64,000 bases of DNA from Escherichia coli (GTDB taxonomy: Bacteria; Pseudomonadota; Gammaproteobacteria; Enterobacterales; Enterobacteriaceae), in NCBI RefSeq assembly GCF_050920415.1, contig NZ_CP169309.1; one strand, 5' to 3'. The position numbers and the translations under genes are program-made. This document shows, in pieces, positions 55,581 to 56,358 of this stretch. The notes under the pieces were generated by a model. It made no database searches. It was not told where the DNA came from and saw only the letters and a program-made list of their open reading frames with translations. Position 1 is the stretch's first letter; every line of letters starts with the position of its first letter.

Positions 55581-55862
55581 CGAATCCCCGGAGAAGGTGG
55601 AAACACGGCTGTAAGCCACACCCGCCATCATGCTGAATTAGCAGTTACGCACGGAGTCTTCATGCCAGCGGGTATAACTGTAACGGGTAAGCAGGCGATT
55701 CCTGTCTCCTGCATAGCTGAATGACGTCACCAGCCCCAGCGTGTCCGTAAATTCATAGCGGTATTTCACATTGAACCCGGTTAAATCATCACTGCCGGAC
55801 ATATCAGAACGGGCATGAAGATACCCGGCACTCAGTTTTGCCGGTAGTTGTGGCATCTTCAT
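55581..55862 (-). pseudogene. remnant of a Lom/Ail/PagC-family outer-membrane protein gene (prophage-type)
   Basis: 74-aa ORF carries the family motif GFNVKYRYEF but no signal peptide; an in-frame TAA is followed by a further family-like stretch [19 protein letters not shown], then another stop. Confidence 0.55.
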
Positions 55863-55938
55863 CGTGTTTACGCCTTCGACATCCAGATAACCGTCACTGC
55901 ATTACCTGAAACCGACACCGTCACGGGTGTCCCCGCAT

Positions 55939-56358
55939 TCAGCCTGAATACTTTGATCCAGATTGCGATGCAGACTGGTCTGTAACTGTCGTCACCATAC
56001 CCCGGATTTCTGCCGCTCCAGACACTGTCTGTATCCTCGAAAGGATCGCAGAGAAAACTGGTGTTTGCTCGTTACCGTTAAAGTACAGGTGTTCAGCACT
56101 ACCCAGCATCACCAGATTCATGGTAAATACCTGGGCAGGTATATACACACTGTTACCGTTAAGCACATACGTATTCGCAATATCTCCGGTTACACGGAGA
56201 ATCAAAAGAGGGGAACCGCAGCCCGCAAAACGAAAAAGGCCACGCAGTTGCGCAGCCTCATAAATTGTGGTTGAAATCCGTTCGCCTATAAAAAAGCCCC
56301 TCCGGAGAGGGGCAGGTATACTCATCACTTTCATCATCTGCATGGCGCCGGGTGTCAC
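55939..56358 (-). CDS. hypothetical ORF (139 aa), possibly a prophage gene fragment
   Basis: ORF upstream of the lom-like remnant on the same strand; no homolog recognised; may be non-coding. Confidence 0.2.
   Translation of the reverse strand: MTPGAMQMMKVMSIPAPLRRGFFIGERISTTIYEAAQLRGLFRFAGCGSPLLILRVTGDIANTYVLNGNSVYIPAQVFTMNLVMLGSAEHLYFNGNEQTPVFSAILSRIQTVSGAAEIRGMVTTVTDQSASQSGSKYSG

Follow-up and report, generated by a model that had tools for sequence, protein, structure and literature searches.

A 2.65-kb islet at serT in Escherichia coli, the probable scar of a lambda-like prophage

The serT islet and its boundaries

The window, meaning the whole 64-kb stretch of DNA analysed here, has the E. 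coli core chromosome as its host context, with torS, gfc, etk, appCBA and hyaFEDCBA on one side of a small islet and yccA, tusE and rlmI on the other. The islet measures 2.65 kb, lies at serT between hyaA and yccA, and has a G+C content of 40.6%, compared with 50.9% across the window. E. coli MFDS1022581 (NZ_CP169399) carries the whole window at 100% identity. The target gene, the boundaries and the outermost phage-derived pieces are as follows:

55292-55379, + strand: serT, an intact tRNA-Ser(UGA) gene and the chromosomal integration target (ARAGORN; Rfam tRNA, 57.5 bits)
55325-55421, unstranded: left copy of a 98-bp att duplication (K-12 alignment; self-identity 92%)
55520-55583, - strand: prophage right-end fragment, normally found beyond the side tail-fibre genes (89% identity to 3706-3769 of the M8 prophage locus L002)
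57699-57869, + strand: 3' fragment (last 57 codons) of a serT-specific tyrosine integrase (RefSeq integrase pseudogene)
57974-58071, unstranded: right copy of the att duplication, with yccA next to it (K-12 alignment)

The duplicated 98 bp comprise the final 55 nt of serT and its terminator. Positions 922-1019 of the reverse-complemented K-12 locus align twice, to 55325-55421 and to 57974-58071, and the sequence of serT equals that of K-12 over the aligned stretch (its 3' part). The tRNA part of the left copy is host-like and its terminator stem is phage-like and divergent, whereas in the right copy the serT 3' end is partial, its tRNA part carries three substitutions, and the terminator is of host type. 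This pattern is expected from site-specific integration of an element with a diverged serT 3' end. K-12 retains the empty site, where yccA directly follows serT and the insert of about 2.65 kb is absent; this and the flanking direct repeat are the hallmarks of an integrated prophage. Prophage integration at serT is documented (PMC8767318; PMC10673567).

Read along the - strand, the islet runs from att through the integrase 3' fragment, a Q-downstream module (tRNA-Arg, tRNA-Gly and an sRNA, in that order), a fragment of J, a fragment of lom and the prophage right end to att/serT. This order, with the integrase beside the right att and the tRNA module, J and lom following toward the left att, is that of a canonical lambdoid prophage. 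Within 55422-57973, none of the genes for integrase, excisionase, replication, lysis, head or tail survives intact, and the islet would have no capacity to excise or to make particles.

The integrase fragment is 91% identical in amino acid sequence to residues 283-339 of an intact integrase in strain N96. N96 carries the same remnant and, in tandem with it at serT, a second, intact prophage with a related integrase. The genes seen in that intact prophage (locus L003, 1-3416) encode an exonuclease, a DUF4224 protein and the tyrosine integrase, and the integrase 3' end with its att is 77% identical in DNA to the integrase fragment and att of the remnant. A weak integrase-like tblastn match elsewhere in the window (38926-39060, E=0.002) lies within gfcC, a core gene, and was attributed to chance.

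The islet is present in 2 of 5426 complete genomes, MFDS1022581 and N96, so its conservation gives no gauge of selection on any part. Some part of it, either the RNA module or lom, is matched in 4052 of the 5426.

RNA genes and small ORFs of the Q-downstream module

The module next to the integrase fragment contains three RNA genes and one protein-coding ORF on the opposite strand:

56185-57694, - strand: Q-downstream module with the sRNA, two tRNAs and the opposite-strand ORF (85-92% nucleotide identity to 9001-10571 of the ST866 prophage locus L004)
56284-56476, - strand: STnc100-family prophage sRNA gene, full length (Rfam RF02076, 111.7 bits against a gathering cut-off of 47, model positions 1-206 of 206)
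56787-56858, - strand: phage-borne tRNA-Gly(UCC) (ARAGORN; Rfam, 45.1 bits; RefSeq)
56860-56936, - strand: phage-borne tRNA-Arg(UCU) (ARAGORN; Rfam, 61.5 bits; RefSeq)
57287-57634, + strand: 115-aa ORF that travels with the tRNA module (RefSeq has a shorter, 97-aa version, WP_024166241.1)

In an intact prophage the module is flanked by the Q/methyltransferase region (in ST866, a methyltransferase fragment downstream of Q) on one side and by the nanS-p esterase gene on the other. The initial 280 bp of the module also match Shigella phage 75/02 Stx, in its stx1B-esterase spacer.

The sRNA gene ends in a terminator, GCCCCTCTCCGGAGGGGC followed by TTTTTT, at 56313-56290, with the stem at 56296-56313 in a terminator scan. 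Its 3' end overlaps the first 75 nt of a 139-aa ORF described below, and no promoter-like site is present directly upstream of the gene on the - strand. In Stx phages STnc100 follows stx2 at a distance of about 75 nt, and its transcripts have been detected in STEC (PMC12370729). The STnc100/PasD family is also associated with prophage esterase genes (bioRxiv 10.64898/2026.05.13.724894). The islet copy resembles other members of RF02076 in its full-length model match, its terminator and its Stx-phage position between stx (or tRNAs) and esterase, but differs from other STnc100 loci in that the downstream esterase is missing and an artefactual ORF runs across the 3' end of the sRNA. RefSeq leaves the sRNA unannotated; PGAP places a 'frameshifted hypothetical' pseudogene on the opposite strand there.

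Many Stx phages carry Ile, Arg and Arg genes (ileZ-argN-argO) instead of the Arg(UCU) and Gly(UCC) pair, and a related locus, L005, has Ile-Arg-Arg at the equivalent place. All three RNAs of the islet, the two tRNAs and the sRNA, may still be produced and may still function.

Homologues of the 115-aa ORF occur in Escherichia only, with full-length identities as low as 61%. The protein has no Pfam or PHROG family match; a Pfam hit to Uso1_p115_head (E=0.081) was below threshold and taken as chance. Its N-terminus is hydrophobic (MIKKIFITSLSILCMGVIV...), and the ORF may be a moron gene. A hydrophobic 45-aa ORF (MLSTFMRYLSSVKISVQQLFMLALAMIVIGSFGVCLFVYYIFIDN; 56626-56763, - strand), at most a candidate small membrane protein and likewise with no Pfam or PHROG match, lies in AT-rich DNA just downstream of tRNA-Gly.

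Remnants of J and lom

Beyond the module, the - strand continues into two damaged tail-region genes and an ORF that spans the junction:

55939-56358, - strand: 139-aa chimeric ORF, the RefSeq 'hypothetical protein' WP_157945130.1 (ORF list; RefSeq)
55868-56192, - strand: C-terminal (receptor-binding) remnant of the tail-tip/host-specificity gene J (93% nucleotide identity to the 3' end of M8 J)
55581-55862, - strand: lom (Ail/Lom family) pseudogene (Pfam, tblastn and alignment to M8; RefSeq Ail/Lom pseudogene)

The sizes and junctions of the deletions described here are taken from comparison with M8, ST866 and N96, mosaic relatives (77-93% identical) that stand in for the progenitor, and some of these "deletions" could be mosaic differences that the progenitor already carried. 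Several of the junctions fall at short (7-9 bp) direct repeats.

The J remnant consists of about 108 codons and a stop at 55868-55870. Positions 55837-56192 are 93% identical to the 3' end of the J gene of the E. coli M8 prophage and the spacer that follows it. M8 J is an uninterrupted ORF of 1101 aa, the N-terminal ~990 residues of which we take to be lambda-J-like. A tblastn search with M8 J aligns residues 988-1101 at 84-86% amino acid identity in two frames (E=8e-50). The frame changes at a 4-bp deletion (GCAG), past which the true frame runs on as …DSVWSGRNPGYGDDSYRPVCIAIWIKVFRLNAGTPVTVSVSGNAVTVIWMSKA* to the stop at 55868-55870. The frame-corrected fragment matches the PHROGs tail-fibre family phrog_496 (E=4e-10), and in nine other E. 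coli genomes the homologous stretch bears the annotation gpJ or host specificity protein J. Homology is thus confined to the C-terminus of J; the full length of about 1100 aa and the conserved N-terminal tail-tip domains are missing.

This C-terminus is of a rare type. Among 5426 complete E. coli genomes, 11 have it (the M8 copy lies at L002 6438-6770), and its last ~65 residues have no match among about 50,000 phage records. The first-pass annotation had looked to phage J and Stf C-termini for the origin of the 139-aa ORF, and that expectation holds for M8 J; lambda J, orf-401/orf-314 (Stf) and Tfa give no significant tblastn match in 55381-58100, because the J C-terminus here is a different receptor-binding variant. 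With the two C-termini read side by side by eye, the fragment would correspond roughly to lambda J residues 995-1132. Compared with lambda J, the islet copy is homologous to the last ~108 residues of a full-length E. coli prophage J, but it is fragmentary and frameshifted, and its C-terminal domain is unrelated in sequence to the LamB-binding domain of lambda.

Similarity to M8 J ends at 56192/56193, and the DNA upstream turns to esterase-upstream spacer. The junction carries an imperfect 8-bp microhomology, TCCGG(T/C)TA. The spacer is similar to the DNA immediately 5' of the nanS-p-type esterase gene in the intact ST866 prophage (L004, 9001 onward), and the same DNA forms the stx1B-esterase spacer of Shigella phage 75/02 Stx. 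Relative to ST866 and M8, the deletion that created this junction took the genes for the esterase, the terminase, lysis, head and tail, as well as J up to about codon 990.

The 139-aa ORF crosses the junction. The idea that it is a remnant of a tail or host-specificity gene is borne out for codons 57-111 (about 52-55 codons; TGDIANTYVLNGNSVYIPAQVFTMNLVMLGSAEHLYFNGNEQTPVFSAILSRIQT), which are in the authentic J frame, but not for the rest. Codons 112-139, the last 28, are J read out of frame past the 4-bp deletion, and codons 1-56 are unrelated non-coding phage DNA that includes the 3' end and terminator of the STnc100-family sRNA gene. Compared with Stx phages, the spacer part shows about 85% identity in DNA but only about 49% when translated in the frame of the ORF, a signature of non-coding DNA. 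A tblastn search of the 139-aa ORF against phage records aligned the first 58 residues only, at about 50% identity and in unannotated stx-esterase spacers, a result that favours a non-coding origin over a gene family. A Pfam hit to Glyco_hydro_59_C (E=0.035) fell below threshold and was likewise taken as chance. The ORF starts inside the sRNA gene and has two terminator-like hairpins within its first 125 nt, the second at 56259-56236, so it is not expected to be made as a protein. We judge it to be a deletion-junction artefact and not a gene.

The lom fragment begins next to J, with the J stop at 55868-55870 lying some 5-7 nt upstream of the ATG of the fragment. Its first part is a 74-aa ORF (55638-55862, - strand) that, as first described, contains the motif GFNVKYRYEF and has no signal peptide. 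The ORF stops at an in-frame TAA (55638-55640), after which 19 family-like codons lead to a second TAA at 55578-55580. Membership of the Lom/Ail/PagC family, proposed from the motif, is confirmed by the joined translation, which matches Pfam Ail_Lom (PF06316) over profile positions 30-126 of 199 with 119.3 bits against a cut-off of 23 (E=2.3e-34). By tblastn the remnant matches an intact prophage Lom with E=4e-43 (73% amino acid identity) and lambda Lom with E=1.3e-9. Among solved structures the top match is the 'Outer membrane protein lom' of lambda, followed by OmpX and Ail. In DNA the remnant is 86-87% identical to the lom genes of Stx-converting and other lambdoid phages and 92% identical to that of the M8 prophage. 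The view that lom marks the islet as phage-derived is upheld by this identity, by the J fragment upstream and by the att-bounded islet with its integrase fragment.

Alignment with the intact 199-aa M8 Lom and with M8 DNA gives the anatomy of the remnant, in which homology spans Lom residues ~26-129 only. A 190-bp deletion relative to M8 took codons 1 to ~30, including the signal peptide, with about 100 bp upstream, and joined the J-lom spacer in frame to lom. The ORF accordingly opens with MKMPQLPAKLS, which has no hydrophobic signal sequence, where the intact homologue begins MRKLCTVILSAVVWLVAAGAPAGAAEH. Its ATG and first ~9 codons (MKMPQLPAK) are translated intergenic spacer, the M8 counterpart of which is ATGAATATGCCGCAACTACCGGCAAA, 5 nt past the J stop. 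The premature stop arose by a TGG to TAA change at 55638-55640 within a cluster of four substitutions that turned CGT TGG into TGC TAA. Farther on, a 48-bp in-frame deletion between 9-bp direct repeats (CCCGCCATC) cost 16 codons (PSVRVNEGFSLYAMAG), Lom residues 100-115. The 19 residues after the stop are therefore in the same frame and family-like, as claimed, and lie so soon past it because these codons are gone; they are not contiguous in the intact protein with the residues that precede the stop.

Everything from Lom residue 130 onward is absent (residues 130-199, the C-terminal 70 codons and a third of the protein), as are the two tail-fibre genes 3' of lom, about 2.15 kb in M8 together with the lom 3' part. 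The lom break is joined by the 64-bp piece at 55520-55583, the M8 counterpart of which lies past the tail-fibre genes at the prophage right end. No intact lom homologue that the initial reading could have missed is present in any frame of the 64-kb window.

The fragment thus shows the profile match and the phage synteny of the Ail/Lom family but neither a signal peptide nor a complete barrel. An intact barrel of this family has eight strands, the C-terminal one closing on a Phe residue (...GVGYKF, shared by lambda Lom and M8 Lom). With no signal peptide, about half of the barrel, no terminal-Phe strand and a nonsense codon, the lom fragment, judged by its sequence, cannot form an outer-membrane barrel protein and is best called a pseudogene of the family rather than a member in the functional sense. 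It shares with the lom of lambda and Stx phages (Ail/Lom/PagC/Rck/OmpX, PF06316) its family and its place right after J. Lambda has the order J, lom, tail-fibre genes, of which the islet keeps J-lom with the tail-fibre genes deleted; in contrast to phage lom, the islet copy is a pseudogene with residues ~26-129 left, a 16-codon deletion, a nonsense codon and both ends gone.

Origin of the islet and its significance

Sequence comparison directly shows what each piece is, the order of the pieces, the junctions at short repeats, the duplicated att and the vacant site in K-12. These findings indicate that the region is very probably the non-functional wreck of a lambda-like (Stx-phage-like) prophage integrated at the 3' end of serT. 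An intact lambdoid phage measures about 40-60 kb. In the sequence of events that we infer, a serT-specific integrase would have inserted such a phage into the 3' end of serT by site-specific recombination, and nearly all of its DNA would then have been lost by stepwise deletions, several of them at the 7-9 bp direct repeats, leaving about 2.65 kb. Replication slippage or illegitimate recombination, together with point mutation, would account for the losses. The last ~108 codons of J and the middle ~90 codons of lom would be what remained of those genes, and the largest deletion would have brought the sRNA/esterase-upstream spacer up against the J receptor-binding domain, creating the 139-aa ORF by chance. 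Neither the 74-aa nor the 139-aa ORF is likely to be expressed.

It has to be asked whether the islet was instead kept because its RNA genes benefit the host, with the lom and J scraps as passengers of a domesticated RNA module. All three RNA genes are full length and above their family thresholds whereas each flanking phage protein gene is destroyed, a part of the islet recurs in 4052 of 5426 genomes in keeping with a module widespread in E. coli prophages, and STnc100 is known to be transcribed in STEC (PMC12370729). Against these points, the occurrence of the islet in two genomes gives no sign of long-term retention, and the chance survival of about 1.5 kb of a phage genome is unremarkable; retention for host benefit is unlikely. 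The fuller proposition, that the cassette of tRNA-Arg(UCU), tRNA-Gly(UCC) and STnc100/PasD sRNA is host-retained and active and that the J fragment also keeps part of a rare domain for a receptor unassigned to any lambdoid phage, is quite unlikely.

It is very improbable that the 139-aa ORF is a genuine new chimeric gene for a protein with part of the J receptor-binding domain. The frame is uninterrupted for 139 codons, is called a hypothetical protein by PGAP and is identical in both islet-bearing genomes, but J is in frame in codons 57-111 only, the last 28 codons are frameshifted J, and the first 56 come from spacer with the DNA and translated identities to Stx phages (~85% and ~49%) given above. 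Its start within the sRNA gene, followed by two terminator-like hairpins, its lack of a Pfam match and its presence in only 2 of 5426 genomes weigh in the same direction. Finally, a decayed chromosomal paralogue of the ail/ompX type as the source of the Lom-like fragment, a notion that could appeal to the chromosomal members of the Ail/Lom family and to the weaker PDB matches to OmpX and Ail, is refuted by best matches to phage and prophage lom genes (86-92% nucleotide identity), by the position just 3' of the J stop as part of a J-lom unit and by the location inside an att-flanked insertion missing from K-12.

As a decayed prophage the islet has familiar company. Rac, Qin and DLP12 in K-12 are cryptic or defective lambdoid prophages. 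The islet resembles these and the tandem or decayed tRNA-site prophages of STEC (PMC8767318) in its tRNA 3' end target, att duplication, gene order and decay. It differs from the classical cryptic prophages in being much smaller (2.65 kb) and in retaining the 115-aa ORF as its sole intact phage protein gene.

On the evidence of its sequence, the serT-yccA islet is an ordinary scar of a cryptic prophage, and RefSeq already listed its lom and integrase pseudogenes. The present analysis adds the J/sRNA/spacer chimera behind WP_157945130.1, an STnc100-family sRNA missing from the annotation, and precise limits for the att copies. Its importance beyond annotation hygiene, in having the islet recognised as a prophage scar, is small. 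The locus serves as a clear worked example of a lambdoid prophage pared down to a few RNA genes by microhomology deletions, and it records tandem prophage integration at serT in E. coli.
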